From NCBI GenBank assembly GCA_963743855.1, contig CAVURK010000006.1, positions 36,234 to 100,233 on the forward strand: a stretch of 64,000 nucleotides of DNA, given 5' to 3'. The position numbers and the translations under genes are program-made. A model generated the notes under the pieces. It was not told the DNA's origin. It saw only the letters and a list, made by a program, of their open reading frames with translations, and did not search any database. This stretch comes from an uncultured Chloroflexia bacterium. GTDB taxonomy: Bacteria > Chloroflexota > Limnocylindria > Limnocylindrales > CSP1-4. This document shows, in pieces, positions 8,718-54,376 of this stretch (position 1 is its first letter; each line of letters begins with the position of its first letter).

Positions 8718-8752
8718 ACGAGGCCCGGAGCGCGTCGCGCCCCGGGCCTCGT
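8718..8752 (-). terminator. long GC hairpin downstream of the 8797 gene
   Basis: Minus strand acgaggcccggggcgcg-a-cgcgctccgggcctcgt: about 16-bp stem with one G-U pair, followed by a pyrimidine-rich tail. Confidence 0.6.
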
Positions 8753-8796
8753 GGGGAGGAGCACCGACAGGAGTCAGGTCGGTGCCATGGATGGCG

Positions 8797-9480
8797 TCAG
8801 ACCGGACGGCTGGTGGACCTGCTGTCGGCACGGCCGATCGAGCACGCGAATGCGATCGCGCCGGTCGCGGCTGCGCTGGCTCCTGCCTGGGCGACCGCGC
8901 GGCCGGTCGCGGCCGTCTCGGCCCCGGCACAGGAGACGGTCGGGTTGAACGGCGTGAACAGGCCCGCCGGGTTGTCCTGGTAGAGCCACAGGTGGAGCGA
9001 GAAGAAGGCCGGGATGTCGTACCGGTTCGGCTCGCCGGTGGCCATGAACATCTCGCCGAACAGGCTCGGCATCTCCGAGCCGTGCTCGGCGATCCAGGGT
9101 GCCTGGAAGACGACGTATTCGAGCGCAACCAGGTGGAGCTTGCCGTGCTTGTCAGGCGCATAGACGAGCGCCTCCGGCTTGGTCGGATCGACGGTCGTGT
9201 CGAGCAGCGAGCCGTTGATGTAGTGGAAGCCCATCGCGCCCGTGCCGTCGAACGACGAGATGCACTCGTGGAGCGGCGCCGGTGCCGGAGGCTGGCCGTA
9301 GCCGGCATCGGCCGCCTGCTTCAGGCTCGCGAAGCGCGCCGTGGCGGCGCGCACCTCCGCGAAGGCGCTGCCATGTCCTGCCGGCGGGGCGGCGGTCGCA
9401 CCGGACACGGCCAGGCTGGCGAGCACGGTCGCCGAGAACAGGGCGGCTGCGAGCCGCCGGGACGTTCTTGTCATCGTCAT
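8797..9480 (-). CDS. secreted hypothetical protein with MGFHY / PEALVY / LHLW motifs
   Basis: Signal peptide MTMTRTSRRLAAALFSATVLASLAVSGATA; GAMGFHYIN, PEALVY, LVALEY and FSLHLWLY..NPAGLF motifs; ATGA overlap with the upstream gene. Confidence 0.75.
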   Translation of the reverse strand: MTMTRTSRRLAAALFSATVLASLAVSGATAAPPAGHGSAFAEVRAATARFASLKQAADAGYGQPPAPAPLHECISSFDGTGAMGFHYINGSLLDTTVDPTKPEALVYAPDKHGKLHLVALEYVVFQAPWIAEHGSEMPSLFGEMFMATGEPNRYDIPAFFSLHLWLYQDNPAGLFTPFNPTVSCAGAETAATGRAVAQAGASAAATGAIAFACSIGRADSRSTSRPV

Positions 9481-9726
9481 ACCTCGATCGGGAGTTCGTA
9501 GATCTCGGGGGTCGGGTGCCCGGCTCGTTCGTGGATCCGGAGCACGGACTCGCGGGATGGCCCGGTGGCCAGGCAGAAGACCTTGCCCGGCATCGGGGTC
9601 CAGCCAGGCATGCTCGAAGTTCACGCCCTCGTCGGCCTGGATCGCCAGGTCCTGTCGGTGTGCCTCCGCCAGCTGCTCGGCGCTCACCCCGAAGAAACCG
9701 GAATGCACGTCCATGAATTTCGCCAT
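9477..9726 (-). CDS. DUF4242 / SCO4226-like small metal-binding protein (frameshift near 9587)
   Basis: Repaired translation MAKFMDVH...AEAHRQDLAIQ...WLDPDAGKVFCLATGPSRESVLRIHERAGHPTPEIYELPIEV*; SD AAGGAGG upstream. Confidence 0.8.
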
Positions 9727-9800
9727 CGCGACCCTCCTTGGTGGATCGGCCCTTTCGGACCGTTGGCACAACGCAGACTCGATGCCGCCCGCGACCGCGT

Positions 9801-9913
9801 CATCGGGCGAACGACCGATGACCACCCCGAACGGGTGCCGAGATCGCGGGGCCGCCGCGTCCCGGCCGCACGAATCCCGAAACCCGGGGACGCCATCGGT
9901 CGAATGACCGATG
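9801..9913. promoter_or_regulatory. two copies of palindrome CATCGGTC-N4-GACCGATG, candidate operator
   Basis: catcgggcgaacgaccgatg at 9801-9820 (one mismatch) and catcggtcgaatgaccgatg at 9894-9913 (perfect), between divergent genes. Confidence 0.6.
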
Positions 9914-9945
9914 ACCGAGACGACCGCGTCCTACACTCTCCAGCC

Positions 9946-12861
9946 ATGGACCGTCCGCTCCGTGCCGTTCGCTGTCCGCTCCTGATCGGGCGAGACGACC
10001 TGCTCGAGCTCACCGATCGGCGGCTGGACGATGTCCTCGCCGGCCACGGGCAGTTCCTGCTCCTCGCGGGCCAGGCGGGGATCGGCAAGACGCGTCTCCT
10101 CGGCGCGATCCGCCGCAAGGCGGAAGCCCGAGGGTTCGCAGCCGTCGAAGGCGCGGTCGCGCCGCAGGATCACGACGTCCCGGCCTCGTCCATCCTCGAC
10201 CTGGCTCGCTCGATGCAGCGGATACCCGTGTTCAGCGCTCTTGGCGAGGCGCTGCTCGAGCTCGACAAGGCCGTCCTCGCCGCGGAGCACGCCCAGCGGC
10301 GAAGGCTCGTCATGGAGACCGTGGAGCTGATCCTCGGCTCGCTGCCGGGACCGACGATGCTGTCCTTCGAGGATCTCCAGTGGGCCGATGACGTGAGCCT
10401 GGAGATCATCGCGGAGCTCGCGCGCCAGTCGCGTGACAGGACGCTCCTGTTGACAGGCGATTATCGGATCGAGGACGTGCCGCGGGGAACGAGCCTCCGT
10501 CAGTGGCGGGCGCGGCTCATCACCCAGCGGATCGCCGAGGAGGTCCGGCTCGTCCCGCTCGATGCGGCCGAGACTGCCCTCGTCACGACCCTGATCCTCG
10601 ACACCGGGCTGCCGGCACCGCGCGACGTCGCGGCCGCCGTCTACGAGCGCACCGATGGGATCCCGCTCCACATCGAGGAGCTGCTCGGTGCCCTCAGCGC
10701 CGAGGCGCGCGCGGACGGGACGGCGATCCGCGAGGCGGGCGTCCCGGAGACGATCGAGGACGCCATCATCGCGCGGATCTCGACCCTTTCTCCGGAGGCT
10801 CAGGCGACCGCTCGAGCAGGAGCCGTCATCGGCCGCTGCTTCGTCCCGGACGTCCTGGCCGGGATCATGGATGTCCCGGCGAACGCGATCGAGGCGCCGC
10901 TCCAGGAGCTCGTCGACCAGTTCGTCCTCGACCCGCCCGGGGTCCGGGGGCTGTACGACTTCCGTCACCAGCTCCTGCGCGACGCGCTGTACCGAACGAT
11001 CCCGCTGTCGGAACGTCGCCGGTACCACGCCCGGGCCGGCGAGTTCGGGGCACGGCTCGAAGGGGCGTCGGAGATCCATGCCTCGGTCCACTACGAACGC
11101 GCCGGGCTCCGTCGCGAGGCATTCGATGCGGCGTTGGCCGGTGCCCGGGAGGCGGCCCGACTCTCGGCGCGGCGAGAGGCGTTCGAGCTCTACCACCGCG
11201 CGGTCAACAACATGCCCGAGGACCTGGGCGTCCTGGAGCGTGCGGCGATCCTGGAGGCCTGCGCCGACCAGGCCCTCTCGATCGAGGAGCACGAGGTCGC
11301 CGAGTCGCTGGCGGGCCAGGCGGCGACCGCCTATCGCGAAGCCGGCGAACCGGCCCGCGCCGTCATCGTGCTTGCCAACGCCCTGACCGTGTGGCGACGT
11401 GAAGGCCGGCCGGTCTCCGAGCGCCTGGCACTGACGAGCGAGCTCCAGGCCGAGGTCGGTCGGCTCCCGGACAGCCGCGACGTCCTCGAGGCGCGCGCCC
11501 TCACCGCGCTGTTGATGGCGTTGACCTACATGGATGCCCGGTCGCTCGACGCGGCCCGTCTGGAGCTCGACCGGCTGCCCGCCCTGGGCGACGAGCTCCA
11601 CGATCCCGAATGGCGGGCGATCGCCGAGTGGAAGCACGGGCTTGCCGACATGCTCGTCGGTGAGCTCGACAGCGGGATCGCCCGCGTCGGCGTGGTCGCC
11701 CACGAGGCGGTCGGCGAAGGCTGGGAGTCGACCGGTGTGACCGCCTTCAGGGAGGCCTCGACGGCTGCCGCCGCTGCCCTCGACTACCCCGCGGCAGTCC
11801 GCTGGATCGACGAGGGCATCCGCTACGCGGATTCGATCGAGCAGTCGCATTGCGCGCACGTCATGCGGGCGACCCTCGCGATGGTCTCGTGGGCTGCCGC
11901 GGACCCATCGGACGCACAGCGTCGGGCGCGGCGGGCGATCGTCGACAAGGGGTGCCGACGCGGCGCCATGACCGCGCACTGGGCCCTGGGATACGTCGCG
12001 ATGTCCCGTGGCGAGCTCGACGATGCGACCACGGCATTGACGGAGGCCCTCGCGTTCGGCATCGCGAGCGAGGAGATCGAGATCATCCTGCCCCCGATGT
12101 GGGGCCTGGCCGAGGTCGCCTTGCAGGCCGGGGACCCGGACCGGGCGCTCGCCATCTGTCGCGACGCACTCGCTCGGGCGGTCGCGGTCGACGAGCGTGT
12201 CCTCCTGGCGCCGTTCGTGGTCACGGGGGTGCGAGCCGCGCAGCAGGCCGGTCGCCCGGCCGAGGCCATCGCCTGGCTCGCGGCGTGCGAGACGCAGGTG
12301 GGCTCGATCCCGGAGGTCGCCGATGCCGCCCTCGACCACGCTCGCGGCATGGTGGCGCTCTCCGAAGGGGCGACCGGGATCGCCCGCACCGCCCTCGAAG
12401 CCGCGGTCGAGGGCTGGGACCGGCATGGGCGTGCGTGGGAGGCCACCTGGGCGCGCCTCGATCTCGCCCATAGCCTCATCCGCACGAACCGGTTCGCCGA
12501 TGCCGCGACGGTCACGACGGCGGCCCGGAAGGCGGGCGATCGCCTCGAGTCGCCGGTCCTGACGGAGCGCGCGGATGCGCTGCTCCGGATGGCCCGCGGA
12601 CACGCATCGGACGACGAACCGTGGCGGCCGTTGACCTCACGCGAGTTCGAGGTGGCGCGTCTGGTCGGCGAGGGCCTGACCAACGCGGAGATCGCCGACA
12701 GCCTTGGCATCGCGCCCAAGACGGCGAGCAGTCACGTGGAGCACATCCTGACCAAGCTCGGCGCGTCGCGCCGGGCCGAGATCGCGACCTGGGCGAGCCA
12801 GGTCCAGACGCGCCCGGCGCCCCGGACGACGCAGCCCGTGGAGCACGCCACCCGAGTCTAG
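9946..12861 (+). CDS. large ATP-binding LuxR-family (LAL/MalT-like) transcriptional regulator
   Basis: Walker A GQAGIGKT, FEDLQWAD, RTDGIPL, YDFRHQLLRD, TPR-like middle region and C-terminal LuxR HTH (LTSREFEVARLVGEGLTNAEIA..HVEHILTKLG). Confidence 0.9.
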   Translation: MDRPLRAVRCPLLIGRDDLLELTDRRLDDVLAGHGQFLLLAGQAGIGKTRLLGAIRRKAEARGFAAVEGAVAPQDHDVPASSILDLARSMQRIPVFSALGEALLELDKAVLAAEHAQRRRLVMETVELILGSLPGPTMLSFEDLQWADDVSLEIIAELARQSRDRTLLLTGDYRIEDVPRGTSLRQWRARLITQRIAEEVRLVPLDAAETALVTTLILDTGLPAPRDVAAAVYERTDGIPLHIEELLGALSAEARADGTAIREAGVPETIEDAIIARISTLSPEAQATARAGAVIGRCFVPDVLAGIMDVPANAIEAPLQELVDQFVLDPPGVRGLYDFRHQLLRDALYRTIPLSERRRYHARAGEFGARLEGASEIHASVHYERAGLRREAFDAALAGAREAARLSARREAFELYHRAVNNMPEDLGVLERAAILEACADQALSIEEHEVAESLAGQAATAYREAGEPARAVIVLANALTVWRREGRPVSERLALTSELQAEVGRLPDSRDVLEARALTALLMALTYMDARSLDAARLELDRLPALGDELHDPEWRAIAEWKHGLADMLVGELDSGIARVGVVAHEAVGEGWESTGVTAFREASTAAAAALDYPAAVRWIDEGIRYADSIEQSHCAHVMRATLAMVSWAAADPSDAQRRARRAIVDKGCRRGAMTAHWALGYVAMSRGELDDATTALTEALAFGIASEEIEIILPPMWGLAEVALQAGDPDRALAICRDALARAVAVDERVLLAPFVVTGVRAAQQAGRPAEAIAWLAACETQVGSIPEVADAALDHARGMVALSEGATGIARTALEAAVEGWDRHGRAWEATWARLDLAHSLIRTNRFADAATVTTAARKAGDRLESPVLTERADALLRMARGHASDDEPWRPLTSREFEVARLVGEGLTNAEIADSLGIAPKTASSHVEHILTKLGASRRAEIATWASQVQTRPAPRTTQPVEHATRV

Positions 12862-12964
12862 CCGCGCGGGTTCCAGCCAGCCGGCTTGTGGCGGCCGGCG
12901 GGATCGGGCGGGCGGCGATGTACGATCGGTCCGAGCCGACCGACCGATCCAGCGCGACCAGGAG

Positions 12965-13645
12965 ATGCCCATGGCCACGACGCCGCATGCATTCGAGGGC
13001 TTCCGGCGCGACGCGATCCAGTTCCTCGCCGACCTGGCCGAGAACAACGATCGATCGTGGTTCCAGCCACGCAAGGCCGACTACGAACGGCTGCTCAAGG
13101 AGCCCCTCGAGGCGCTGTGCGTCGCCCTCGACGACCGGTTCCGCGAGCGCGGCATCCCGCTCGGCGCCGATCCCGCGAGATCGCCGTTCCGGATCTACCG
13201 CGACGTCCGTTTCTCGAAGGACAAGTCACCGTACAAGACGAACATCGGGGCGTCGTTCCCGTACGTCGGCGGCCATCCGGACGCCGGGGGTTACTTCCAC
13301 CTCGCGGCCGGTGAGATCTACGTGGGTGGTGGGATGTGGCACCCGGACCGGACGAGGCTCGCCGCCTGGCGCGCCGTCGTCGACCGCGGCGTCGGCCTCG
13401 AGCCGCTCGATGACCCTGCCTTCGTTGCGACGTTCGGTCACGTTGGCGGCGAGCGGGTCAGCCGCGTACCCACCGGGTTCCCCAAGGATCACCCGCGGGC
13501 CGACCTGCTGACGCTCAAGGACGTCACGTTCGGCCGCCATCTGTCGGACGACGAGGCGATGTCGGCCGGATTGCCCGACATCATTGCCGATGATTTCGCG
13601 ACGGCCGTGCCGGTCTTCCGCCTGCTTGGATCGTTGTCAGGCTAG
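12965..13645 (+). CDS. DUF2461 (TIGR02453) family protein
   Basis: FLADLAENNDRSWF, FRIYRDVRFSKDKSPYKT, GYFHL, GGGMW. Confidence 0.88.
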   Translation: MPMATTPHAFEGFRRDAIQFLADLAENNDRSWFQPRKADYERLLKEPLEALCVALDDRFRERGIPLGADPARSPFRIYRDVRFSKDKSPYKTNIGASFPYVGGHPDAGGYFHLAAGEIYVGGGMWHPDRTRLAAWRAVVDRGVGLEPLDDPAFVATFGHVGGERVSRVPTGFPKDHPRADLLTLKDVTFGRHLSDDEAMSAGLPDIIADDFATAVPVFRLLGSLSG

Positions 13646-13708
13646 CCCAGGATCGACGACGACGGCGTCACGCGCCGCCCGCCAGGCCAACGACACGGAC
13701 GATCCGAT

Positions 13709-14299
13709 CTACTTGCAGTGGGTCGTCGAGGTACTCGTGAAAACGTCGACGGAGCCAGTTTCGTCGGAGACGGTGCCGTCGATCGTGAATGTGCCGGCCA
13801 GGTCGGCGAATTGATCCGTCGTCGTGGTCTTGGTAGTGCAGCTCCCGGACTTGGTCGTCGAGCGTGTCGTTGTCGTCGAGATCGGCCCAGTCGGACTGTC
13901 GGTGGCCGACACCGTCACGGTCCTCGACGAGGAGCAGGTCCGCCTGTTGCAGCTGTCGAGCGAGATCTGCGTCGCGTCGAGCGACACTGAAAGATCCGCC
14001 CCGATCGCGACGGTGCCGCCGGACGCGCAGCCGAACTCGTCGGAGATGCTCGTGAACCGACCGTTGCTCGAGATCGAGTAGGTGGATATCTGGAGGCACG
14101 GCGGACCGGCCGACCCGTCCTCATTCGAAGACATCGACAGGGTCGTGTCGGTGCACACCTGGCGGCCGCCGGACGTCGAGCAGCTCGACGAGCTGCTGAA
14201 GAAGCTCGTTCCGTTCGGCGATGTATCTGCGGCCACCGGCCCGACCACCAGAAGCAGGCTGATCGGGACCGCCAGGAACGCGACTGCAAATCGGCGCAC
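13709..14299 (-). CDS. secreted Ser/Thr-rich hypothetical protein with 8 Cys
   Basis: SD AGGAGG then GTG; signal peptide MRRFAVAFLAVPISLLLVVGPVAA; beta-rich Thr/Ser body. Confidence 0.7.
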   Translation of the reverse strand: MRRFAVAFLAVPISLLLVVGPVAADTSPNGTSFFSSSSSCSTSGGRQVCTDTTLSMSSNEDGSAGPPCLQISTYSISSNGRFTSISDEFGCASGGTVAIGADLSVSLDATQISLDSCNRRTCSSSRTVTVSATDSPTGPISTTTTRSTTKSGSCTTKTTTTDQFADLAGTFTIDGTVSDETGSVDVFTSTSTTHCK

Positions 14300-14630
14300 G
14301 GGGTACCTCCTGTCATACCGACGAACTCTGCGGGCCACTGACTCGGCTTTCGACCACTCCGTCGGTCGCCGACGATAGCCCTCGGGCGTCTCGACAGCGT
14401 CTCGATGAACGCGCACCCTGGGCTCGAGCGCGTCGGTTTCGGCCGACCCCCTCGAACGACGAGCCCCATTTCGGCCGCGTGATCCGACACGACGGCCGAT
14501 GATGTCGCGACGGCGGCTGCAACCGAGGCGCAACCGGAGTCGGACCGGACGCGACGGTACAATCGGCGCGACACACCGAAGCCGAACGCGGGCCGCCAGA
14601 GCCGCGCCCGCCCCCGGAAGGATCCGCCCG

Positions 14631-17405
<2,775 letters not shown>

Positions 17406-17428
17406 CGTCGGTCGTCACGGGATCCGAG

Positions 17429-17899
17429 ATGAGCCGCCGACCGCCTCGCTGGGACCCGGACGATCGCGGGATCGGGGTCGCCGATGCACGCGGGCACCTC
17501 GCGCTGATCGACGCGTTGCGTCGCGCGGCCGACGAGGAAGGCTGGGTCGCCGAGGCACCCGAGCTCCACCTCCTGCCCCATCTACGTGACCAGGCGGCAG
17601 CCGGGTCGGACTGGGCGATCGGCCCGACCGTCGTGCGACCGGACGGCACGTTCGAGGTCGATCTTGGATGGACAGGCGCGCCTGATGCCGACCTCCGGAT
17701 CGCGGTCTACGGGCTGATCGGGGCGATCGCCGAGTCGTCGACGCTGATCCACGAGCGCCGCGATGGCGACCACCGCGTCTTCGACATCGTCAGCGGGATG
17801 TTGGCCGGCGACAGCAGGTTCGCGCCGCACGGACACACGCTTCGACTCCGGATCAGCGGGGCGCCCGGGACGGTCGCAGCCGCGGACCCCGACGCCTGA
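17429..17899 (+). CDS. hypothetical protein
   Basis: Normal codon usage; contains GWVAEAPELHLLPHL and FAPHGH segments; lies between ppdK and the MFS gene. Confidence 0.6.
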   Translation: MSRRPPRWDPDDRGIGVADARGHLALIDALRRAADEEGWVAEAPELHLLPHLRDQAAAGSDWAIGPTVVRPDGTFEVDLGWTGAPDADLRIAVYGLIGAIAESSTLIHERRDGDHRVFDIVSGMLAGDSRFAPHGHTLRLRISGAPGTVAAADPDA

Positions 17900-19176
17900 C
17901 GCCCCCGTCTCGCCAGGCATCCGCCGGCCGGCTCCGTCGGATCTTCCTCGACACGGCTCCGCTTCGGCGGGACCGCGACTACCGCTGGCTGTGGTCCGGT
18001 CAGGTCGTCAACGGTATCGGCAACCAGATCACGCGTGTCGCGCTGCCGTTCCAGGTCTACGTCCTGACGCAGTCGACACTGGCGATCGCCGCCCTCGAGT
18101 TCTTCCAGCTGGTGCCGATCCTGCTGTTCGCGCTCGGTGGCGGCTCACTGGCAGATGCGGTGGACCGTCGCCGGCTGCTCATCGTCACCCAGATCGGACT
18201 GGCGGCGTGCAGCCTCGCGCTCATCGTCCTCACCGTGACCGGACCGCCGGTCGTGCTCGCCCTGTTCGTCGTGGCCTTCGTGGCGGGTGGGCTGGCGGCG
18301 GTCGATCAACCGGCGCGGGCATCTGCCATCCCGCGGCTCGTCCCGCCGGAACGGCTCCCGTCGGCCATCGCCCTCAACCAGCTGAACTTCCAGCTGGCCT
18401 CGATCGTCGGCCCGGCGATCGGCGGGATCCTCATCGCGACCGTCGGGCTCGCCGGCGCGTACACGGTGGACCTGGTCTCGTTCGTGGCATCGCTCGTCGC
18501 CTTGCTCGCGATCCATCCATTGCCGCCCATCGGCGTCGTCGCCCGCCCCGGCCTCGAGGCGATCCGCGAGGGACTCCGCTTCGCCCGGCGTCGACGGGCG
18601 ATCCTCGGCTCGTTCGTGATCGACCTCAACGCGATGGTCTTCGGCATGCCGACGTCCCTGTTCCCGGTCCTGGCGCTCAGCGTCTTCGGGACGGGAGCGG
18701 CGGGCTTCGGCCTGCTCGCAGCCGCGCCGGCGGCGGGCGCGTTCCTCGGCGCCCTGTTCTCCGGGTGGGTCGGCTCGGTCCGCCGGACCGGCCGGGCGAT
18801 CCTGTTCACGGTCGTGGTCTGGGGCCTCGCGATCACCGCGTTCGGCCTCGTGACGATCTCGTTCCCTCTCGCTCTGTTCTTCCTCGCCGTGGCGGGCGCC
18901 GCCGATGTCTTCTCGGCCGTCTTCCGCTCGACTCTCGTCCAGCTCGAGACGCCCGACGAGCTCCGTGGCCGGGTGATGTCGATCCACGCCCTCGTCGTGA
19001 CCAGCGGGCCCCGGCTCGGCGACATCGAGGCGGCCCTGGTCGCGGCCCTGACCAGTCCGCAATTCGCGATCGTGTCCGGCGGGATCGCCTGCGTCATCGG
19101 GGTGTGGGTCGTGGCTCGCCGGTTCCCGGAGCTGGCCGACCACGTCATCCGGTCCGGGATGGGGGCGACCAGGTGA
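17896..19176 (+). CDS. MFS transporter (EntS/DUF894-like)
   Basis: Frame is open from CTG at 17896 (CTGA overlap): RDYRWLWSGQ, motif A GSLADAVDRRR, PDELRGRVMS, about 12 hydrophobic segments. Confidence 0.88.
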   Translation: MTPPSRQASAGRLRRIFLDTAPLRRDRDYRWLWSGQVVNGIGNQITRVALPFQVYVLTQSTLAIAALEFFQLVPILLFALGGGSLADAVDRRRLLIVTQIGLAACSLALIVLTVTGPPVVLALFVVAFVAGGLAAVDQPARASAIPRLVPPERLPSAIALNQLNFQLASIVGPAIGGILIATVGLAGAYTVDLVSFVASLVALLAIHPLPPIGVVARPGLEAIREGLRFARRRRAILGSFVIDLNAMVFGMPTSLFPVLALSVFGTGAAGFGLLAAAPAAGAFLGALFSGWVGSVRRTGRAILFTVVVWGLAITAFGLVTISFPLALFFLAVAGAADVFSAVFRSTLVQLETPDELRGRVMSIHALVVTSGPRLGDIEAALVAALTSPQFAIVSGGIACVIGVWVVARRFPELADHVIRSGMGATR

Positions 19177-19324
19177 AGTCCGGGCACCTTGTGCCGCGGC
19201 TCATACCCAAAACGGTTCCGCATCGCACCGATTCGGCGAGGCCGTACTTGACCGGGATGAGTCACAGGCGCGAAGGTACGAGGGTCCTCATCCCATCACC
19301 GCGAAGCCGGACGACACCACCCGC

Positions 19325-22300
19325 ATGACAACCGCCAGGGGAGCCAGGGGCCCACTGGGGGCGCTGATCATCATCGCGCTCATCCTGCCCTTCAGCGCCA
19401 CGAACGTGCTCGCCGACAGCGGTGCGAGCGTACCCGCGGGCTTCCGCGACGAAGCGTTGCTGACCGGCCTCGTCCAGCCCATGTCGGTCGTGTTCGCCCC
19501 GAACGGGAACGTGTTCGTCGCCGAAAAGCGCGGCACGATCCAGTTCTACACGAGCATCACCGACACGACGCCGACCCTGTTCGCGGACCTCAGCACGAAC
19601 GTCCACAACTACTGGGACCGCGGCCTCATGAGCCTGGCGGTCGACCCCGGGTACCCGGCACGTCCCTACGTCTACGTCATGTACGCCTACAACCACATCC
19701 TCGGCGACCCGGCAGCGGCGCCGCGCTGGCCGTCGGCCGACGCCGACGTGCCACCGGGCAGTCCGTACGACGATCGCTGTCCCAATCCGCCGGGCTCGTC
19801 GACCGACGGCTGCGTGATCTCGGGACGCCTCTCGCGGCTGACCGTCTCGAATGGCGTGATGACAGGCACCGAGCACGTCCTCGTCGAGGATTGGTGCCAG
19901 CAATTCCCGAGCCACTCGCTCGGCACCGTGATGTTCGGGCCCGACGGGGCGCTCTATGCCTCGGCCGGCGACGGCGCGAACTTCTTCAATGCCGACTATG
20001 GGCAGTTCGGTGGGTCGGCCGGCTCGCCGACCCCGCGCAATCCGTGTGGCGATCCACCCGGCGGGACCGGCGCGACCCTGACCGCGCCGACTGCCGAAGG
20101 CGGCTCGCTGCGCAGCCAGGACCTGCGCACCACGGGGGACCCCGTCGGGCTCGACGGCTCGGTCATCCGGATCGATCCGGACACCGGAGCGGCCTGGCCG
20201 ACGAACGCCATGGCCGGATCGACGGACCCCAACGCGCAACGGATCATCGCCTACGGCCTGCGGAACCCGTTCCGGATGACGATCCGGCCGGGGACGTCGG
20301 AGGTGTGGATCGCCGACGTCGGCAACATCAGCTGGGAAGAGGTGGATCGGCTCGCCGACCCGTCGGCCGCTCCGCGCAACTTCGGCTGGCCGTGCTGGGA
20401 AGGGCCAGCGACGCAGGGAGCCTACGTCGAGATCGGCCTGAACCTGTGCGATTCGCTTCAGGCCAGCGCGGTCACGTTGCCGTACATGTCGTACAAGCAC
20501 TACATCCCGGTCACGGACAACGACGGCTGCGGGACCGGCAGCTCGTCGATCTCCGGTTTGGCGTTCCTGTCCGGCTCGAGCGGCTACCCCGACTCGTATG
20601 ACGGCGCCCTGTTCTTCACCGACTATGCCCGCCGCTGCATCTGGGTCATGCCCGCCGGCGCCGACGGCCTCCCTGACAAGAGCGCGACGACCCTGTTCGC
20701 GAACCTCGACCGGGCATCGGACGTCCCTGGCGGAGCCGTCTTCCTGACCATGTCGCCCGACGGCGACCTCGTCTATGCCGACTACGACCGCGGCGAGATC
20801 CGGCGGATCCACTACTACGTCGCGAACCAGCCACCCGTGGCGTCGTTCACCACGACGCCCTCGACGGGGCCGGCACCGCTCCACGTCGACTTCGACGCGC
20901 ACGCGACGACCGACGCCAACAACGACAACCTGACCTATGCCTGGGACCTCGATGGCGACGGACAGTACGACGACGCGACCGGGCTGACCGCGTCGACGAC
21001 CTACACAGCCAAGGGCAACGTGGACGTCGGCCTGAAAGTCACCGACTCCGGTGGCCTGTCGGACACGACGACACGGACCGTCTCGGTCGACAACGGCCCG
21101 CCGCAGGTGACCATCGACACGCCGTCACCAACACTGACCTGGAAGGTCGGCGACGCCATCTCGTTCAGCGGGACCGCCACCGATCCCGAGGACGGGACGT
21201 TGCCTCCGTCCGCCTTCCAGTGGACCCTCACGATGCGCCATTGCCCGTCCGACTGCCACTCGCACATCATCCAGACCTTCACCGGCGTCTCGTCCGGGAC
21301 CTTCGACGCGCCTGCCCACGACTACCCGTCCCATCTGCTGCTGTCGGTGGTGGTCACCGATTCGGACGGCTCGACGGCGACCAACCAGCTCGAGCTCTAC
21401 CCGAAGACGGGCACGATCTCCACCGACACGTCGCCGGCCGGGATCGCCACCACGCTCGGTGACGTCAACGCGGTCGCCCCGACCGTGACCGGGATCGTCG
21501 GCACCCAATTGACCGTCACCGCCCCCGCCAGCCAGGTCATCGGCGAGGGGACGTGGAGCTTCCGAAGCTGGTCCGACGGCGGCGCCCGGTCCCATACGGT
21601 CCTGGTGACCGAGGGGGCGCAGCACCTGACGGCGACCTACGCGCTCAGCGGGACGACCGACGCGTCGGCCACCTGCGCCGGGGCGGGCGCTGCCGTGACT
21701 CCGTCGGGGCTGTGGCAGGCCGGCAAGTTCGGCACCGCCAACGACGTCGACTGGTATCGATTCAAGCTGACCAGCACGACCCGGATGCGGCTCGTCCTCG
21801 GCGACCTGTCTGTCGGGGCCAACATGAGCCTCTACCAGGGCTGCACGAAGCTCCTCCAGAAGGCGGATCGGGCCGGAACCGGCACGGAGGAGATCATCCG
21901 CAATCTCCCGGCGGGCACCTATGCCGTCCGGCTCTACGGCCAGGGTTCGCCGACGACCCCGGCTCACGCCTTCCTGATGCAGAAGCTCGGCAGCGGGGTC
22001 CGGGTGCTCTCCCTGCGCGCTCACGTTGAAGGCAGCTCACTCCGTTTCATCGGTGAGGTCTACAACAACTCCAGTCGGACGGTCGGCCGGGTCATCGTGA
22101 CCGCGCGGCTGTACGACGCCAAGGGCCACCTCCTGGCGACGCGCAGCGCGAATACGCTGCTGCCATACGTTCCCGGCCTGACCAGGGCGCCCTTCACCAT
22201 CGACGGTTCTCGTCCGGCCGGGTATGACCATGTGTCGGTGACGGTCAGCGCGCCGGTCTCCAGTCGGTCGGTCGTCGATCCTTCCCGCACGACCACGACC

Positions 22301-37999: not shown

Positions 38000-38102
38000 G
38001 TGCCTTGAGCGCTTGATTCGCGGCGTATAGTCCGCGTCGAGGGACGTCCGATACCGTTCTGCCAGTGCCCGGCAGCGGACGTCCACACGTGGGAGGGCGT
38101 TC

Positions 38103-38741: not shown

Positions 38742-38748
38742 GCGCGTC

Positions 38749-40273
38749 ATGGACCAGCGGTCGCTCGTCGCCGCCATCGACCAGGGGACGACGAGCAGCC
38801 GCTGCATCCTGTTCGACCGCGCGGGGCGACCGGTCGCCGGTCATCAGCTGGAACATCGCCAGATCACGCCGCGACCCGGCTGGGTCGAGCACGACGCCGA
38901 CGAGATCCTCGAGCGCGTGCAGACCTGCGTCCGGGTCGCGTTGCGCGAGGCCGGCGCGGATGCCGGGACTCTTGCAGCGGTCGGCATCAGCAACCAGCGT
39001 GAGACGACCGTGGTCTGGTCGCGCCGGACCGGACGCCCGGTCGCGCCCGCGATCGTCTGGCAGGACACCCGGACGGCGGCCGCCGGCGATCGTCTTGCGG
39101 CTGCCGGCACGGGCGGGGCAGACCGCTTTCGTTCCCTGACCGGGCTGCCCATCTCGACCTACTCCTCGGCGCTTGAAGCTCGCCGCGATCCTCGAGGCGG
39201 GCGGTCCTGACCGGCGCGCCGCGGCCGAGGCCGGCGAGCTCCTGTTCGGGACCATCGACACGTGGCTGATCTGGCAGCTGACCGGCGGCGTCGATCGCGG
39301 CGTCCATGTCACCGATGTCACGAACGCCTCACGGACGATGCTGATGGGTCTGGCCTCCCTGGCCTGGGAGCCCGAGCTGCTCGATGCCGTCGGCGTCCCC
39401 GCGGCGATGCTGCCCGATATCCGCTCGTCATCGGAGGTCTACGGGCACGGGGTGGGGGACCTGGTCGGCGTCCCGATCGCCGGCGACCTCGGCGACCAGC
39501 AGGCGGCGCTGTTCGGGCAGACCTGTTTCGAGCCCGGTCAGCTCAAGTGCACCTACGGCACGGGTTGTTTCATGCTGATGCACACCGGCGAGCAGCCGGT
39601 CGCCTCGCGTCATGGGCTGATCACGACGGTCGCGGCGCGGCTCGGCGAGGGTCCCGCGACATACGCGCTTGAGGGTTCGGTCGCCGTCGCGGGAGCCCTG
39701 ATCGGCTGGCTGCGCGACAACCTCGGGATCATCGGCGACGCGTCCGAGGTCGAGGCGCTCGCACGGTCCGTGCCGGACAGCGGCGACGTCGTCTTCGTGC
39801 CGGCCTTCTCCGGGCTGTTCGCGCCGCACTGGCGGAGCGACGCCCGCGGCGTCATCGCCGGGCTGACGCGCTACGCGACCCGCGGGCACATCGCCCGCGC
39901 GGCGCTCGAGGCGACCGCCTACCAGGTCAACGACCTCGGGGTCGCGATGGTCGCCGATCTCGAGCGCGACCTGCCGGGCGAGCTGCGGGTCGACGGCGGG
40001 ATGATCGGCAACGAGCTGTTGATGCAGTTCCAGGCCGATATCCTCGGGCGACCGGTCGTGGCGCCGCGGATCGCCGAGACGACCGCCCTGGGGGCCGCCT
40101 ACGCGGCCGGCCTGGCCGTCGGGTTCTGGAGCGGCCTCGACGAGCTGCGGGCGATGGACCAGCCGGGCCGTCGCTGGGAGCCGGACATGGACGAGGCGAC
40201 CCGCGCCGCCGGGATCGCCCGCTGGCACAAGGGCGTCGAGCGGACGCTCGGCTGGGTCGAGCCCGGCTCGTAG
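38749..40273 (+). CDS. glpK: glycerol kinase (frameshift near 39173)
   Basis: [82 protein letters not shown]. Confidence 0.93.
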
Positions 40274-48825: not shown

Positions 48826-48858
48826 TCTCAGCGTCATCTCAGACGGCCGACCCAGGAT
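48826..48858 (+). promoter_or_regulatory. TCTCAG-N5-TCTCAG-N10-CAGGAT promoter (OmpR/MprA-type box)
   Basis: TCTCAG at 48826-48831 and 48837-48842; -10-like CAGGAT at 48853-48858. Confidence 0.6.
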
Positions 48859-48864
48859 CAAGGC

Positions 48865-48961
48865 TGTTACTCCTCCCCGCACGGACGCCGGCGGGCCCCG
48901 GATCGGACTGACGATCTCCTCCCTGTCAGTCAGGATCGCGGCCCGCCGGCGTTCGATCTTT
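48865..48961 (+). ncRNA. candidate small regulatory RNA with two CUCCUCCC anti-SD motifs
   Basis: CTCCTCCC at 48870 and in the loop at 48916; 16-bp + 4-bp + 7-bp nested stem spanning 48882-48955; TCTTT tail; no plausible ORF. Confidence 0.6.
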
Positions 48962-49005
48962 CCGACGACTTGACCCGTTCGCCGTCCGGACCCACCCTTA
49001 CCCAC

Positions 49006-50232
49006 ATGACCCGACGGCCCATGATCGGCGTCGGTGCCGTCGTGGTCGCCGTCGCGATCACCGTGGGGATCGCCCTCGGTGCGCCCTCCGGCGGGCCGAA
49101 GCCCGGTCCCTCGTCCGACCCATCAGCCCCAGCCGACGGTGGCTCGGCCGCGTCCGTCCCGACCCCCCTGCCGATCCCCGGGCACGAGGTCTTCGGCTTC
49201 GTCCCGTACTGGGAGATGAACGGCGACATCGCCGCGCACGTGGCCGCGACCGATCTGACGACGCTCGCCCTCTTCTCCGTGACCCACACGAAGACCGGCG
49301 CGATCGACACCAAGCAGACCGGCTACAAGCGGATCACCGGCGACATCGGAACGCAGCTGATCCGCGAAGCGCACGCGCGTGGGACACACGTCCAGTTCGT
49401 CTATTCCAGCTTCGGGACGGCCCGCAACAAGACCCTGTTCACGTCGCTGAAGATCCAGGACGCGACGATCGCGGGCCTCGTCGCGCTCGCCTCCCAGGTC
49501 GGGGTCGACGGCATCGATGTCGACGTCGAGCAGCTCGGGCCAGAGCTCGTCCCGGCCTACGGCGCATTCGTCGGGCGGCTTCGCGCAGCGCTCCGTGCGG
49601 CGATCCCGGATGCGTCCGTCTCGGTCGCCACGACATCGGGATTGAACGGCGCGGCCATGGCGGTGGCCGCGATCGGCGGCGGCGCGGACCGTGTCTTCCT
49701 GATGGGCTATGACTACCACTACGGAGGCTCCGAGGTCGGCGCGTCCGCGCCGATGGCCCGCCGTGACGGCGCCGTCCAGGACCTCCCATGGTCGCTCGAT
49801 CTCTATGCCGCGGCCGGCGTCCCGGTCGACAAGACGATCCTGGGGCTGCCGCTGTACGGGACGCGCTGGCGGGTCGCCGGGCCGGAGCTCGGCGCGCCGC
49901 GGCTCGGCAACGGCGCGATCTGGGTCCCTGCCGACAACCCGAAGTTCCTCGCCGATCCGCCCGCCCCGCCCGAGTTCGACCCCCTCGAGGTCGTCGAGTT
50001 CTACGCGGTCGCCCCGACGGTCAGCCCGGTCCCCGGCGATTCGCGCGCGACGGCGGGCTGGCAGGCCATCTATGTCGACTCGCCCGAGACCCTCACCCCA
50101 AAGCTGGCTCTCGCCGACGACCGTGGTCTGGCCGGTGCCGGTTTCTGGGCGATCGGGTACGAGCGCGGCCTGCCGGGCTACGGCGACCTCATCGCCCGCT
50201 TCGCAGCCGGCAAGCTCGAATCCTCACCGTAG
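49006..50232 (+). CDS. membrane-anchored GH18 family glycoside hydrolase (chitinase / peptidoglycan hydrolase-like)
   Basis: N-terminal TM, FGFVPYW, catalytic DGIDVDVE (DxxDxDxE), LMGYDY, LGLPLYG, GAGFWAIG; own promoter TTGACC-17-CACCCT just before the ATG. Confidence 0.85.
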   Translation: MTRRPMIGVGAVVVAVAITVGIALGAPSGGPKPGPSSDPSAPADGGSAASVPTPLPIPGHEVFGFVPYWEMNGDIAAHVAATDLTTLALFSVTHTKTGAIDTKQTGYKRITGDIGTQLIREAHARGTHVQFVYSSFGTARNKTLFTSLKIQDATIAGLVALASQVGVDGIDVDVEQLGPELVPAYGAFVGRLRAALRAAIPDASVSVATTSGLNGAAMAVAAIGGGADRVFLMGYDYHYGGSEVGASAPMARRDGAVQDLPWSLDLYAAAGVPVDKTILGLPLYGTRWRVAGPELGAPRLGNGAIWVPADNPKFLADPPAPPEFDPLEVVEFYAVAPTVSPVPGDSRATAGWQAIYVDSPETLTPKLALADDRGLAGAGFWAIGYERGLPGYGDLIARFAAGKLESSP

Positions 50233-50274
50233 CAGCGGGATCTCGGCTGCCTGACGCGCACCTATCATGGACGC

Positions 50275-53200
50275 ATGGTGGCCGGGGAAGGGGCCGACAA
50301 GGCGACTGACAGGGGCGTCCGCAGGGCGTCGAATCTTCTCGTCCTCGGTTCATCCGCGGGCGGGATCGAGGCGCTGTCGCGCGTGGTCGCCGACCTGCCG
50401 GCGGATCTCCCAGCCGCGGTCGTCATCGCCCAGCACCTTGACCCCCGGCGGTCGAGCCACCTGGCCGAGATCCTGGAGCGCCACGCTGTCCTGCCGATCA
50501 CGGTCATCGACGGGATCACACGGCTCGAGGACGGCGTCATCTTCGTCGTCCCCGCGAACCGCCTCGTCGAGGTCACCGAGGACGGGCTGCGGCTTCGGCC
50601 CGCCCGACGCGGAGCGATCGCGCCGTCCGTCGACCTCCTGTTCACGAGCGCAGCCCAGGACCCATGGCGAGCGCGTCATCGCGGTCGTCCTGACCGGGAC
50701 CGGGTCCGACGGATCGGCCGGAGCCTGGAACGTGAAGCAGGCCGGCGGGACCGTCGTCGTCGAGAACCCCGAGACCGCCATGTTCGCGTCGATGCCGGCT
50801 TCCGTGTCGCCGTCACTGGTGGATGCGACGGCCGACCTCGACGCCCTCGGCAACGTCATCGTGGGCATCCTCCAGGTCATCGAACGGCCGGCGCGAGCCC
50901 GGTCGACGACGACGCCTTCGGCCGGCTGCTCGACCGCATCCGCGATCGGAGCGGGATCGACTTCGGCGCCTACAAGCCGGCCACCATCGTCCGCCGCCTG
51001 CGAGGGTCGGATGCGGGCGACCGGGAGCGCGGACATCGCCGGCTACGCCGCGCTCATCGAGCGGGACGCGACCGAGTACGACCGGCTGATCAGCAGCCTG
51101 CTGATCAAGGTCACCGGGTTCTTCCGCGACGCGCGGCTGTGGGACCACGTGCGCGATCGAGATCATCCCGGGGCTGCTCGAGACGGCCCGGCGCGAACGG
51201 CGCGAGCTGCGCGTCTGGTCGGCCGGGTGTTCGTCGGGCGAGGAGGCGTACTCCTTGGCGATGACCATCGCGGAGGCGCAGCGCGACGACCCAGACCTGT
51301 CGACGTCCGGATCTTCGGGACCGACATCGATCCGGGCGGCGATCGCGTTCGCGAGACGCGGCATCTATCCGGCCGGCGCCGTGCAGGACGTTCCGACCGC
51401 GCTGCGGAGCCGATACTTCATCCGCTCCGGCACGGGCTTCGACGTCGTCAAGCGGCTGCGCGCCGAGGTGGTCTTCGGCGAGCACGACCTGAGCGCGCGG
51501 GTGCCGTTCCCGCGGATCGACCTGCTCCTGTGTCGCAACGTGCTGATCTACTTCACACCCAGGCTGCAGCGCGCCGCGCTCGAGACCTTCGCGTTCTCGC
51601 TGCGGACCGGCGGCGGTCCTGGTCCTCGGCCAGTCCGAGTCCGTGACGGCATCACCCGGCGCCGTATGCTGAGGACCACGCGCGGCTGCGGATCTACCGA
51701 CGGCTGCCCGGTCATCGAACGGTCCCGCACGCGTGGCCGAAGGTGGTTCACACGGCTCGAGAACCCGCCACCCGTTTGAGCATGGCCATCGATTCGACGC
51801 GTCGCGATGCGGCAGCGGCGCTCGATCCCGCCGCGACGGCGGAGTCGATCCTGCTCGGGCTCGACGTCGGCGTCGTCGTCGTCGATCCGCACTACGACAT
51901 CGTGCGCATCAACACGGCCGCGCGACGCGTGCTCGGCGTCCATGGCACGGCCTTCGAGCAGGACTTCATCCATCTCGCCGACGTGCTGCCATCGAGCGCC
52001 GTCCGCAGCGCTATCGACGCGGCCCTCCGCGGCAAGCCCAGCCACGGGGTCTACGAGATCGAATCGGTCGACGTCGCCACCGACGCGACGCGCTTCATCG
52101 AGGCGCACGTCCGTCCCGATCGCGGGTTCACCGGGACGGTCGATGGCGGCCGTCATCGAGCTGACCGACATCACCGCGATCGAGCGCGAGCGCCGGGGCC
52201 ACGCCCGCACACGCCAGCGTCTCGACAAGGCCGCGGCACTCAACGAGCGCCTGTTGCGCGCCAACGACGAGCTGACCGCCTTGATCGCCGAGCTCCGCCT
52301 GTCGAACTCGGCGATGCTCCGTTCGAGCGAGGACGCGCAGGCCGGGCGCGAGGAGGTCGAGACCCTCAACGAGGAGTTCCAGGCGACCAACGAGGAGCTC
52401 GAGACGCTCAACGAGGAGCTGACCGCGACCGTCGAGGAGCTCCGCATCGCCAACGAGGACCTCGCCGCCCGGACCGAGGACCTCCGTCTCCAGGCTGCTC
52501 GCCATCGAGCAGCAGAAGCGGGCGACCGAGGAGGAGCACGACCGCCTCGGGTCGATCCTGGCCAGCATCGGCGACGCCGTCGTCGCAGTCGATCACGACG
52601 GCAAGACGGTCCTCACGAACCTCGTCTATGACCGGCTGTTCGGCGGGCCGGACGCCGAGATCCGGCTGGAGGACGTGGCCGGTCTGCCGTTCCTGCCCGA
52701 GGACCGGCCCCAGCGTCGGGCCGCCCGCGGCGAACGGTTCCGGATCGAGTTCGCGGTCAGCGATCCCGACGGGCAGCGGCACTGGTTCGAGGCGGTGGCC
52801 GAGCCCCTGACAGTGAAGGATCGGACGTGGGGCGGCGTCGTCTCGATCCGCGACGTCTCGGAGCGGACGATGCGCCTCAGCCTGGAACGGCTGATGGGCG
52901 CCGCCGGCCACGAGCTCAAGACGCCGACGGCGGCGATCCACAACTACCTGCAGCTGATCGCGCGACGCCTGGCCAGTGGCGAGACGGACGATGCCGACCT
53001 GTACACGGGCCGGGCGATGATCCAGGCCCAGCGGCTCGACGAGCTGGTCGACCGGCTGTTCGACGTCACGCGCATCCGCAGCGGGCGGCTCGAGATCGTC
53101 ACCGAGCGGGTGGACCTGGTCAGGATCGTCCGCGAGGCGACCGAGGTGTCGTCGGTCATGGTCAACGCCCCGGCGATCGAGTTCAGCGCGAAGCCCGCCT

Positions 53201-53592
53201 CGCTCCCGATCCAGGGCGACGCCGGTCGCCTCGAGCAGGTCTTCCTCAATCTCGTGGCCAACGCCATCGAGCATGCCGCGGGGACCGGCTCGATCGAGGT
53301 CTCGGTCAGGCGATCGGGCGCCTTCGCGGCGGTCGAGGTTCGCGATCACGGCCGTGGCATCGCCGCGGAGGATCTGCCCGTCCTGTTCGAGGCCTACACC
53401 CGCCTCGGCCAACCACAGACCGTGTCGGGCCTCGGGCTCGGCCTGTTCGTCGCCCGCGAGATCATCGCGGCCCACGGCGGCTCGATCACGGTGACGTCGG
53501 AGATCGGAACGGGCACGACCTTCACGGTCCGGCTGCCGGCAGAGGCACCGGTCAAGCGCACCAGAGGTCGCGCCAGGAAGGTCGCCACGTGA
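50275..53592 (+). CDS. CheB-CheR-PAS-coiled-coil-histidine kinase fusion (about 10 frameshifts)
   Basis: CheB triad GSSAGG / QH / TGTGSDG; CheR SAGCSSGEEAYS, FGTDID, LLCRNVLIYF; PAS; EELETLNEEL coiled coil; HELKTP, NLVANA, DHGRGI, GLGLGL. Confidence 0.82.
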
Positions 53593-54200
53593 CTGTCCGT
53601 CTGGCGATCGTCGAGGATCACCCGGCGCTGGCCGACGGGCTCGCGACGCTCCTCCGTGGGTCGACTGATGTCGAGGTCGTCGGCACGGCTGCGGACCTCG
53701 CCGAGGCGACCGCCCTCCTCGAGCGGGAGGCACCCGATGTCGTCCTCTGCGACATCCGCCTGGCACACGGCGATGACGGCTTCGAGCTCGTCCGGCGTTT
53801 CGCGCCGAAACCGGCGTTCATCATGCTGACCGTGGCCTCCTACCCGAGCTATCACGCCCGGGCGGTCGAGCTCGGCGCGATGGGCTATCTCTCCAAGATG
53901 GCGACCGTCGACGAGATCCTCGACGCGATCCGGACGGTCGCGGGCGGGCACTCGGCCTACCCGAGCGATGCCCGGCGGTCCGCCGAGGACGCGCTCCGGG
54001 TCCCGACCGCTCGCGAGCTCGAGATCCTCGTGCTCGTTTCCGAGGGCCTGTCGAACGGCGAGATCGCGGACCGGCTGTCGCTCCGGGTGAAGACCGTCGA
54101 GAGCCAGCTCCGCCGCCTGTTCGACCGGTACGACGTGACCAGCCGAACGGCCCTCGCCCGGCTCGCGTCACGCCAGGGCTGGATCGACGAAAGTCACTAG
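53589..54200 (+). CDS. NarL/LuxR-family response regulator
   Basis: GTGA overlap with the kinase; IVEDHP, VVLCDIRL, MLT, GYLSK, TARELEILVLVSEGLSNGEIA..KTVESQL. Confidence 0.9.
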   Translation: MTVRLAIVEDHPALADGLATLLRGSTDVEVVGTAADLAEATALLEREAPDVVLCDIRLAHGDDGFELVRRFAPKPAFIMLTVASYPSYHARAVELGAMGYLSKMATVDEILDAIRTVAGGHSAYPSDARRSAEDALRVPTARELEILVLVSEGLSNGEIADRLSLRVKTVESQLRRLFDRYDVTSRTALARLASRQGWIDESH

Positions 54201-54269
54201 GGCGCGATGCTCAGGCGGAAGCGGGATTTCATCCTCGCGAACGGATCGGGGCGGGCCTATCGTCGAGCG

Positions 54270-54376
54270 GCGAGATCGTAAGGGTCGACCATCACCCCGC
54301 CCCTCCGGGACTTGTGTCCCCTTCGGACTCGTAGCCCCTCGCCGCCCGGACGAGCAAGATCGGATGACGAGGGGCT
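54270..54376 (+). ncRNA. candidate small RNA in a convergent intergenic region
   Basis: TATCGT at 54258-54263 with no downstream plus-strand gene; hairpins gggt/accc and gggac/gtccc, CCCCTCC linker, terminal hairpin. Confidence 0.3.
54333..54376. terminator. long hairpin between the convergent NarL and MMPL genes
   Basis: agcccctcg (54333-54341) pairs with cgaggggct (54368-54376), extended by further pairs; about 12 nt from the MMPL stop. Confidence 0.55.

Follow-up and report, generated by a model that had tools for sequence, protein, structure and literature searches.

Two conserved, unrelated candidate small RNA genes with C/U-rich, anti-Shine-Dalgarno-like tracts in uncultured Limnocylindrales (Chloroflexota)

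The subject of this work is a stretch of 64,000 nucleotides (nt) from an uncultured Limnocylindrales bacterium (Chloroflexota), hereafter the window, which corresponds to positions 36234-100233 of contig C6 in the genome assembly G000 (3.28 Mb, 70% G+C, 10 contigs). Five sites in this window, two on the minus strand (sites 1 and 2) and three on the plus strand (sites 3, 4 and 5), had been interpreted in a sequence-only reading as copies of one recurrent RNA module, in which a C/U-rich tract that resembles the anti-Shine-Dalgarno (anti-SD) sequence accompanies a strong hairpin and each copy is tied to a different regulator. Comparison with relatives points to another explanation: with a probability of roughly 60%, sites 4 and 5 are two unrelated single-copy small RNA (sRNA) genes that probably silence messages, sites 1 and 2 are terminator hairpins, and site 3 is a chance match. 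Direct support comes from conservation, copy number, strand, base-pairing, an invariant loop and synteny. The relatives were gathered via the DnaG protein, the covariance models R1 (site 4), R2 (site 5) and R3 (site 1) were searched over 131 genomes of the genus, and the strength of each hairpin was judged by comparing its fold with those of 200 dinucleotide shuffles per site.

Site 4 and site 5 as candidate RNA genes

Site 4 is predicted to encode an sRNA of ~100 nt (48864-48963, plus strand) whose structure shows covariation. Model R1, which covers the hairpin region, finds one copy each in 44 of the 131 genomes and has its sole place in G000 here, with reverse-strand scores far below those of the forward strand (97.1 bits forward vs 41.2 bits reverse in G001). 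Similarity to the relatives begins right after the stop of the upstream gene (48819) and runs on into a gene with a GH18 domain. In an alignment of 30 genomes, the order on the plus strand is a direct TCTCAG-N5-TCTCAG repeat with an 11-bp period (48826-48842, kept in 30/30), ~10 nt, a -10-like hexamer (CAGGAT in G000, 48853-48858, with A at the second and T at the sixth position in 30/30 as read by eye from the alignment), ~7 nt, GTTCTCTCCTCC or a similar C/U tract (CTCCTCCCC in G000, 48870-48878), a long imperfect hairpin of ~74 nt (48882-48955), then GGCGTTCG and a short T-run (48956-48963), and finally a variable insert of 0 to ~60 nt. In the fold of the G000 sequence, the C/U-rich 5' end is unpaired, and so is the apical loop GATCTCCTCCCT (about 48913-48924).

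An independent alignment with MAFFT has 93.7% of its cells in agreement with the pairing of site 4, compared to 26-51% when the partners are slid, and cells with double changes number 39 vs 11.8 ± 3.6, a score that none of 500 shuffles reached. G-U pairs, 18 of them at one position, fit the strand of the GH18 gene only. While the stems vary, the core of the apical loop, CTCCTCCC, is invariant in all 30 genomes. At site 2 it is the stem that is kept and the loop that varies, and it therefore appears that the loop sequence of site 4 is itself under selection, which argues that this loop is the functional part. With the invariant loop core, the predicted unpaired 5' tract and the covariation, site 4 shows the conserved, accessible seed and conserved structure that would be expected of a trans-acting sRNA. 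The genus has a canonical anti-SD tail: the 16S ribosomal RNA (rRNA) was not found in G000, and the tail was taken from six relatives, in which the 3' end reads GGATCACCTCCTTT. The G000 loop GATCTCCTCCCT matches the tail GATCACCTCCTT at 10 of 12 positions.

The upstream neighbour of site 4 is divergent in four relatives (G001, G008, G012 and G022), and a variable insert precedes the GH18 promoter; site 4 is therefore neither a 3' untranslated region (UTR) nor part of a fixed leader. The origin from a 3' UTR in the manner of CpxQ that had been considered is thereby set aside for this site, and a stand-alone RNA gene is in line with the TCTCAG repeat, already noticed in the sequence-only reading, and with the two exposed anti-SD-like tracts. 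The repeat is a candidate transcription-factor site over the -35 region of the promoter of this RNA, and the transcription start would follow from the -10-like hexamer, whose pattern is the same that marks leaderless starts genome-wide. The GH18 gene has a promoter of its own (TTGACC-17 nt-CACCCT with a leaderless-type ATG at 49006; 48970-49008, plus strand), which reads TTGACC, 17 nt, CACGCT with the ATG 7 nt further in the alignment of the relatives, and judging from this conservation, the GH18 promoter and gene are a unit separate from the site 4 RNA. An extracytoplasmic-function (ECF)-type promoter at site 4 was also considered and rejected, as the upstream GGAAC box of G000 is not kept in relatives.

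The TCTCAG-N5-TCTCA(G/C) pattern has six matches in G000 where ~1 is expected, five of them intergenic, and this recurrence may reflect the regulon of one DNA-binding protein. Further TCTCAG repeats are found at C6:636779-636806, C6:928332-928348, C9:580863-580879 and C9:767688-767704, with three in a row at one locus; downstream of the copy at C9:580.9 kb stands GGAGGAGATC, a complement of the loop of site 4.

Site 5 is a structured RNA of about 115-120 nt (54268-54388, plus strand), and model R2 finds one copy each in 30 of the 131 genomes and one in G000. Its conserved parts are the motif TTTCATCCTC(A/G)CG (TTTCATCCTCGCG in G000, 54227-54239, kept in 28/30 genomes), a -10-like hexamer (TATCGT, 54258-54263, which fits nAnnnT in nearly all of the 30 genomes; like the motif, this was read by eye from the alignments), a GGGTCGACC box, a C/U-rich tract that reads CACCCCGCCCCTCC, as in G000 (54293-54306), or GCCTTCCCCTC and the like, a small hairpin (GGGAC/GTCCC) and a terminal hairpin (AGCCCCTCGCCG...CGGCGAGGGGCT, 54331-54379). 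The upstream motif and the hexamer would represent promoter or operator DNA. Conserved -10-like hexamers and upstream motifs thus exist at both sites as sequence patterns of own promoters. About 60 nt of conserved sequence lie 5' of the terminal hairpin, and covariation supports the structure also at this site: 98.1% of the cells agree with the pairing vs 45-57% with slid partners, double changes occur in 24 cells vs 7.2 ± 2.1, and the G-U pairs, including 13 at one pair, fit the plus strand. Rfam contains neither of the two RNAs, and a scan of the whole window detected no family at gathering level. By its sequence, site 5 is unrelated to site 4. A small peptide encoded on the minus strand of site 5 was considered as well and rejected, as only three of its codons are kept.

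Site 5 had been tied to a NarL locus, and this link gains substance from synteny, as the conserved structured RNA accompanies the operon of a NarL-type regulator. In one clade, the gene of the NarL-type regulator, with a hairpin and T-run of its own, precedes the RNA; in the other clade, the RNA is upstream of and divergent from a CheB/CheR fusion gene in 7/7 loci checked. In G000, the order of the operon is CheB (50267-51646), PAS, kinase and NarL-type regulator (53589-54200), the CheB/CheR gene being its first. The genes on the other side of site 5 vary and include MMPL (convergent), arginase-family, aromatic-amino-acid lyase, LplA-type ligase and carbonic anhydrase genes. As far as gene order tells, the linkage to the CheB/CheR-kinase/NarL-type operon is constant across the clades. 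In 10 genomes, sites 4 and 5 are found on one contig at a distance of 0.7-6.7 kb, where they flank the GH18 gene and the signalling operon, with the closest spacings in G116 (1.3 kb) and G090 (0.7 kb); in others, the two sites are unlinked.

Sites 1 to 3 and the C/U-plus-hairpin pattern in the genome

The sequences and coordinates that the sequence-only reading had given for the five sites are all correct, and all five sites are intergenic, in case of site 3 only since relatives place the upstream stop at TGA 37960-37962. Strong hairpins had been claimed throughout. In the comparison with shuffles, the values are z -5.4 for site 1 (none of 200 shuffles as good), z -4.7 for site 2 (again none of 200), z -3.2 for site 4 (1/200), z -0.95 for site 3 (42/200) and z -1.3 for the plus strand of site 5 (22/200).

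Site 1 (8718-8786, minus strand) consists of two hairpins of -14 and -35 kcal/mol, namely a small one with a C/U loop (8760-8786) and a 16-bp terminator-like one (8718-8752), which are connected by the linker CTCCTCCCC (TCCTCCTCC-type, 8753-8761), kept in six of eight matched genomes. Model R3 matches in 8 of the 131 genomes, and the terminator stem shows compensatory changes between GAGGCCCGG, GAAGCCCGG and GAGACCCGG. The upstream gene is a different one in G008 and G001, where the element stays with the downstream promoter, and a CpxQ-like 3'-UTR origin of site 1 is not supported. Site 2 (35434-35477, minus strand) combines a 16-nt C/U-rich, G-free tract (35462-35477) with a 12-bp hairpin (35434-35461) and is situated between a small conserved gene, always the same one, and a leaderless-type OmpR-family regulator gene (TACGAT 35419-35424, ATG 35411). 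The hairpin is kept in 20/20 genomes with a variable loop and a compensatory change in the loci L043 and L052, and C-to-T changes lead to G-U pairs only on the sense strand. On average, the 15 nt in front of this hairpin contain 12.3 pyrimidines and 1.5 G, with CTCC, CCTC or TCCC in 19 of the 20 genomes, though the sequence itself drifts.

As expected for terminators, the G+C-rich hairpins of sites 1 and 2 (-35 and -28 kcal/mol) lie 45 and 20 nt after co-directional stops, within the range of 10-50 nt. A T-run directly after the stem is absent from both, the tails being GTCTCGTCTC and TTCCCGCTCT, and a terminator consensus scan of window positions 1-20000 did not report site 1, with site 2 outside the scanned range. 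The two sites fit, in their sequence features, terminator or 3'-end hairpins with a constrained pyrimidine-rich, G-poor 5' flank, and it is possible that they are sources of 3'-UTR-derived RNAs.

Site 3 (37960-37999, plus strand) is not a conserved feature. Its tract starts inside the upstream stop codon, in a variable spacer, and of the 16 genomes that were aligned, only G000 has this tract and the two small hairpins. On this comparison, site 3 is a chance match and drops out as a copy of a module. A strongly conserved leader nearby (38012-38102, plus strand), upstream of an unknown gene (38103-38741), is kept in the 16 aligned genomes and contains CTTGATTCGCGGCGTATAGTCC, a nested stem CGTCCGA...GTCTGCCnGTGCCCGGCAGCGGACG, followed by GGTTGGAGG and the ATG. 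This candidate cis-regulatory RNA has a single Rfam match, Streptomyces-metH with 14.9 bits, the cut-off being 50.

The notion of one recurrent module at five places is not upheld by these comparisons. The models of sites 4, 5 and 1 each match a single place in G000, and the YGAC-loop-GUCR stem that three sites had seemed to share is superficial, being kept at site 4 only; the stem letters of site 1 vary between relatives, and the hairpin of site 3 is absent from them. A regulator gene directly adjoins two of the five sites. It is by conservation in relatives that sites 1, 2, 4 and 5 stand above chance.

In the genome at large, C/U tracts (pyrimidine runs of at least 8 with a CTCC, CCTC or TCCC core) number 4026, of which 85 are in the window vs ~79 expected, and the intergenic DNA of the window contains 15 vs ~19 expected. 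By themselves, such tracts are common and do not exceed chance. Genes were called with our own hexamer caller, which covers only 80% of the genome, partly due to frameshifts, so that "intergenic" includes some coding DNA, and cleaner tests were done with 758 gaps of 30-400 nt that separate confidently called, co-directional genes. The anti-SD pentamers CCTCC, CTCCT and TCCTC, counted on the sense strand with exclusion of the last 25 nt of each gap, are not enriched in these gaps (370 vs 416 ± 23 in dinucleotide shuffles), and SD-like pentamers are found 275 times vs 267 ± 21. At 152 sense-strand hairpins (-18 kcal/mol or lower), 22 anti-SD pentamers start in the 20-nt 5' flank, vs 11.1 expected from the rest of the gaps, and only 1 SD-like pentamer does so, vs 9.4 expected. 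With hairpins of -22 kcal/mol or lower, these numbers are 20 vs 7.7 and 1 vs 6.4. The loops are rich in both word classes (anti-SD 11 vs 3.4, SD-like 13 vs 2.9), which results partly from counting convergent gaps on both strands. The 5' flanks are G-poor (G 0.29 vs 0.34) and slightly A-rich, the 3' flanks slightly T-rich.

The sequence-only reading had suggested counting such tracts near hairpins against a shuffled background and looking for an association with regulator loci, and neither comparison supports a network. The flank motif occurs at 13 of the 152 hairpins vs 10.3 ± 2.8 when each flank is shuffled in its own composition (P 0.21), and 2 of 61 C/U-plus-hairpin loci adjoin a response-regulator gene vs 12 of 903 of all hairpin loci (Fisher P 0.19), response regulators being the only family that was mapped. 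The "module" thus marks a minority of the terminator-like hairpins and is, as a word, explained by the composition of the flanks. A module picked by eye in a genome of 70% G+C is mostly ordinary, and only the comparison with relatives separates functional C/U-plus-hairpin sites from the rest.

About 10 more strong intergenic hairpins with CCTCC-type loops were noticed in G000. At C6:1129490-1129560 (locus L243, ~262-300), a 13-bp terminator-like hairpin follows a co-directional gene, and its NCCTCCC loop is kept in 6/6 genomes (G000 and five relatives). A hairpin at C9:376.2 kb with the layout of site 4 was rejected, as G059 does not keep it and the synteny is broken in a further three genomes, and for a C/U-loop hairpin at C9:631.3 kb there was no syntenic match over the hairpin.

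Several genes of the window are split by frameshifts, namely those of an FGGY kinase (38692-40273), CheB/CheR-PAS-kinase (50267-53592), MMPL (54389-56759) and an AlkZ-like protein (56820-57919). Their parts are in adjacent frames, which points to assembly indel errors rather than real pseudogenes, and as many window genes are frameshifted, such errors are likely in G000. ARAGORN calls an 84-nt transfer RNA, tRNA-Gly(GCC), at window positions 24697-24780 (plus strand), inside an apparently disrupted histidine-kinase gene of the opposite strand, and this may be a false call.

Alternative explanations and known kinds of RNA

Which other explanations could account for the conserved elements? Sites 4 and 5 could in principle act in cis, as leaders or attenuators of downstream genes (GH18, or histidine-utilisation-like genes in a distant clade), rather than as trans-acting RNAs. 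In most of the 30 aligned loci, a conserved start (ATG/GTG plus ACCCGACGG) does lie downstream of site 4 in the same orientation, in G000 that of GH18, and in the loci L133 and L134, a distance of 117-140 nt separates site 5 from downstream, co-directional genes of the arginase family or of aromatic-amino-acid lyases. We nevertheless regard this explanation as unlikely, since the GH18 gene keeps its own promoter, with a start at leaderless distance and with the 0-60-nt variable insert after the hairpin, and since the downstream gene at site 5 changes from clade to clade whereas the link to the signalling operon is constant. For the distant clade, a leader role of site 5 is possible. The originally proposed network, in which five copies of one C/U seed and hairpin module, each tied to a different regulator, would act as anti-SD sRNAs that include CpxQ-like 3'-UTR fragments, can draw on the fact that a C/U tract beside a hairpin is kept in relatives at four of the five sites, on the further hairpins with CCTCC-type loops, among them the conserved one at C6:1129.5 kb, and on the excess of anti-SD pentamers and scarcity of SD-like ones in the 5' flanks of the most stable hairpins. 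The sites are, however, not homologous to each other, site 3 is not conserved, the flank motif is no more frequent than in composition-matched shuffles, and there is no general adjacency to response regulators, nor does a regulator gene directly adjoin more than two of the five sites, which makes a network of this kind quite unlikely.

Could all hairpins be ordinary terminators or insulators, with C/U tracts that merely reflect terminator context, be it G-poor, non-competing flanks or Rho-loading sequence? The G-poor 5' flanks and the near absence of SD-like words from them agree with such a context, and sites 1 and 2 are close behind the stop codons of co-directional genes. For the whole set, we consider this very unlikely, because it leaves unexplained the invariant 8-nt loop core and the conserved upstream repeat of site 4, the position of this site in divergent intergenic regions, and the conserved ~60 nt before the terminal hairpin of site 5. 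It would be extremely improbable that the conserved elements act as DNA, i.e. as protein-binding palindromes or operators of neighbouring promoters. Although the hairpin arms at site 2 hardly vary in sequence and overlap with the -35 region of the regulator gene's promoter, and although the TCTCAG repeat and the TTTCATCC motif probably function as DNA sites, the many G-U pairs of sites 4 and 5 would turn into A-C mismatches if the opposite strand or duplex DNA were considered, and the compensatory changes preserve pairing, not sequence.

Some observations weigh against the favoured explanation that sites 4 and 5 are silencing sRNA genes. Their promoters are sequence patterns only, and the run of T behind the hairpin is short at site 4 (ATCTTTCC) and not clear at site 5. 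In case of site 5, the C-rich tract has three of its C in pairs of the consensus fold, and the fold of G000 itself pairs the tract with an upstream G-run that the relatives lack; the accessibility of this tract is, on these predicted folds, uncertain. When complements of four tracts were searched with up to one mismatch, the result was long, uninformative lists with no convincing target. In the distant clade, site 5 is found 117-400 nt upstream of co-directional metabolic genes. The genome-wide counts of anti-SD pentamers in gaps and of the flank motif at hairpins, given above, show no enrichment over shuffled sequence. Finally, G000 is 64.8% complete according to marker genes and contains many frameshifted genes, and the lengths of its C-runs may carry assembly errors.

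The closest known kind for sites 4 and 5 would be, by analogy, sRNAs with anti-SD motifs such as the alphaproteobacterial cuckoo RNAs and NfeR1. In two publications (PMC4615179, PMC10746234), cuckoo RNAs (RSs0680/CcsR, alpha-r14, NfeR1) are described as two to four adjacent hairpins of 24-50 nt with variable stems, each loop of which has CCUCCUCCC, and NfeR1, itself under the control of a regulator, is described to silence the ntrBC two-component operon and messenger RNAs (mRNAs) of transporters at ribosome-binding sites via its anti-SD motifs. Compared with these descriptions, site 4 is similar in that its hairpin loop shows an anti-SD motif, CUCCUCCC, which equals eight of the nine letters of CCUCCUCCC and is present in 30/30 genomes, and in that variable stems surround an ultraconserved loop; site 5 is without such a loop. 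Whereas the cuckoo RNAs, as far as these descriptions go, are alphaproteobacterial and have several copies per genome, site 4 is a single-copy element of Chloroflexota with one ~74-nt hairpin and a single-stranded 5' tract. A series of two to four hairpins of 24-50 nt is not present, site 4 having one hairpin and site 1 two, the second without a C/U loop in G000. With the model of the Rfam family ar14 (RF02344), site 4 reaches 11.2 bits and site 1 reaches 13.5 bits, far from the gathering cut-off of 58.8, and site 4 is not a member of the cuckoo family.

Other likenesses are more distant. The 6C family is characterized by two hairpins with C-rich loops. For the 6C sRNA (B11) of high-GC Gram-positive bacteria, C-rich loops are reported to bind several mRNAs without an RNA chaperone (PMC6486639). 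Site 5 resembles what is reported there by its C-rich tract in a high-GC genome, but the tract is not in an apical loop and the phylum is a different one; the 6C family is absent from the Rfam matches of sites 4 and 5 with E values up to 10. In the UCCC-motif sRNAs of Firmicutes (RNAIII, Rsa RNAs), unpaired C-rich motifs have been proposed to pair with ribosome-binding sites (PMC4615179); the motif described there is different and shorter, the lineage is low-GC, and there is no sequence or structural relation. Sites 1 and 2 may be likened to the CpxQ type, as a single-stranded tract precedes a terminator hairpin at a gene end. Unlike that type, site 1 keeps its place beside the downstream promoter where another upstream gene is present, and site 4 is not in a 3' UTR in four relatives.

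Leaderless messages and a possible selective silencing

That many genes of this genome look leaderless, as the sequence-only reading had assumed, is confirmed by a survey of the start context of 1398 genes with an upstream gap of at least 60 nt. The number of genes in which a TAnnnT hexamer ends before the called start is 68 at a distance of 7 nt, 38 at 8 nt and 21 at 9 nt (127/1398), with 0-8 genes at each other position, and 538 of the 1398 genes have an SD-like 4-mer between -20 and -4. The sharp TAnnnT peak fits widespread leaderless mRNAs in this Chloroflexota lineage. In the window, leaderless-type starts are exemplified by the genes of the OmpR-type regulator (35409-35424, minus strand) and GH18 (48993-49008, plus strand). 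As leaderless and SD-led genes coexist, an anti-SD RNA could therefore act on one class only.

For sites 4 and 5, we infer transcription, transcript ends, targets and repression from sequence features, and the following mechanism would be the most plausible one. Both elements are conserved in uncultured Limnocylindrales, each with a promoter-like region and a predicted strong end hairpin, and each would display C/U-rich sequence that is complementary to SD sites. In case of site 4, the anti-SD-like motif is predicted to be exposed twice, in the 5' end and in the apical loop, the latter being nearly a copy of the 3' tail of 16S rRNA. Most likely, the RNAs would pair with the ribosome-binding regions of SD-led mRNAs and thereby block initiation, and leaderless mRNAs, including that of the neighbouring GH18 gene, would escape the repression. 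Site 4 probably becomes active when a factor binds to the TCTCAG repeat with its 11-bp spacing, and site 5 is probably controlled by, or acts together with, the adjacent CheB/CheR-PAS-kinase/NarL-type system.

A more far-reaching possibility, which we hold to be unlikely in this complete form, is a two-tier translation in Limnocylindrales, in which a sizeable share of the mRNAs is leaderless and unrelated RNAs that mimic the 16S tail shut down the SD-led class selectively. The set of mimics would comprise the site 4 and site 5 genes as well as terminator hairpins with CCUCC loops or flanks, and the RNAs of sites 4 and 5 would be the post-transcriptional output of the signalling system, with the TCTCAG repeat as its DNA target.

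No paper on regulatory sRNAs of Limnocylindria or Chloroflexi came up in a limited literature search. Sites 4 and 5 would add two well-supported RNA families, so far uncatalogued, from uncultured bacteria that are abundant in soil, with a clear strand, structure and synteny. As the loop of site 4 copies the anti-SD tail in a lineage in which leaderless and SD-led genes appear to coexist, such RNAs may discriminate between classes of mRNAs.

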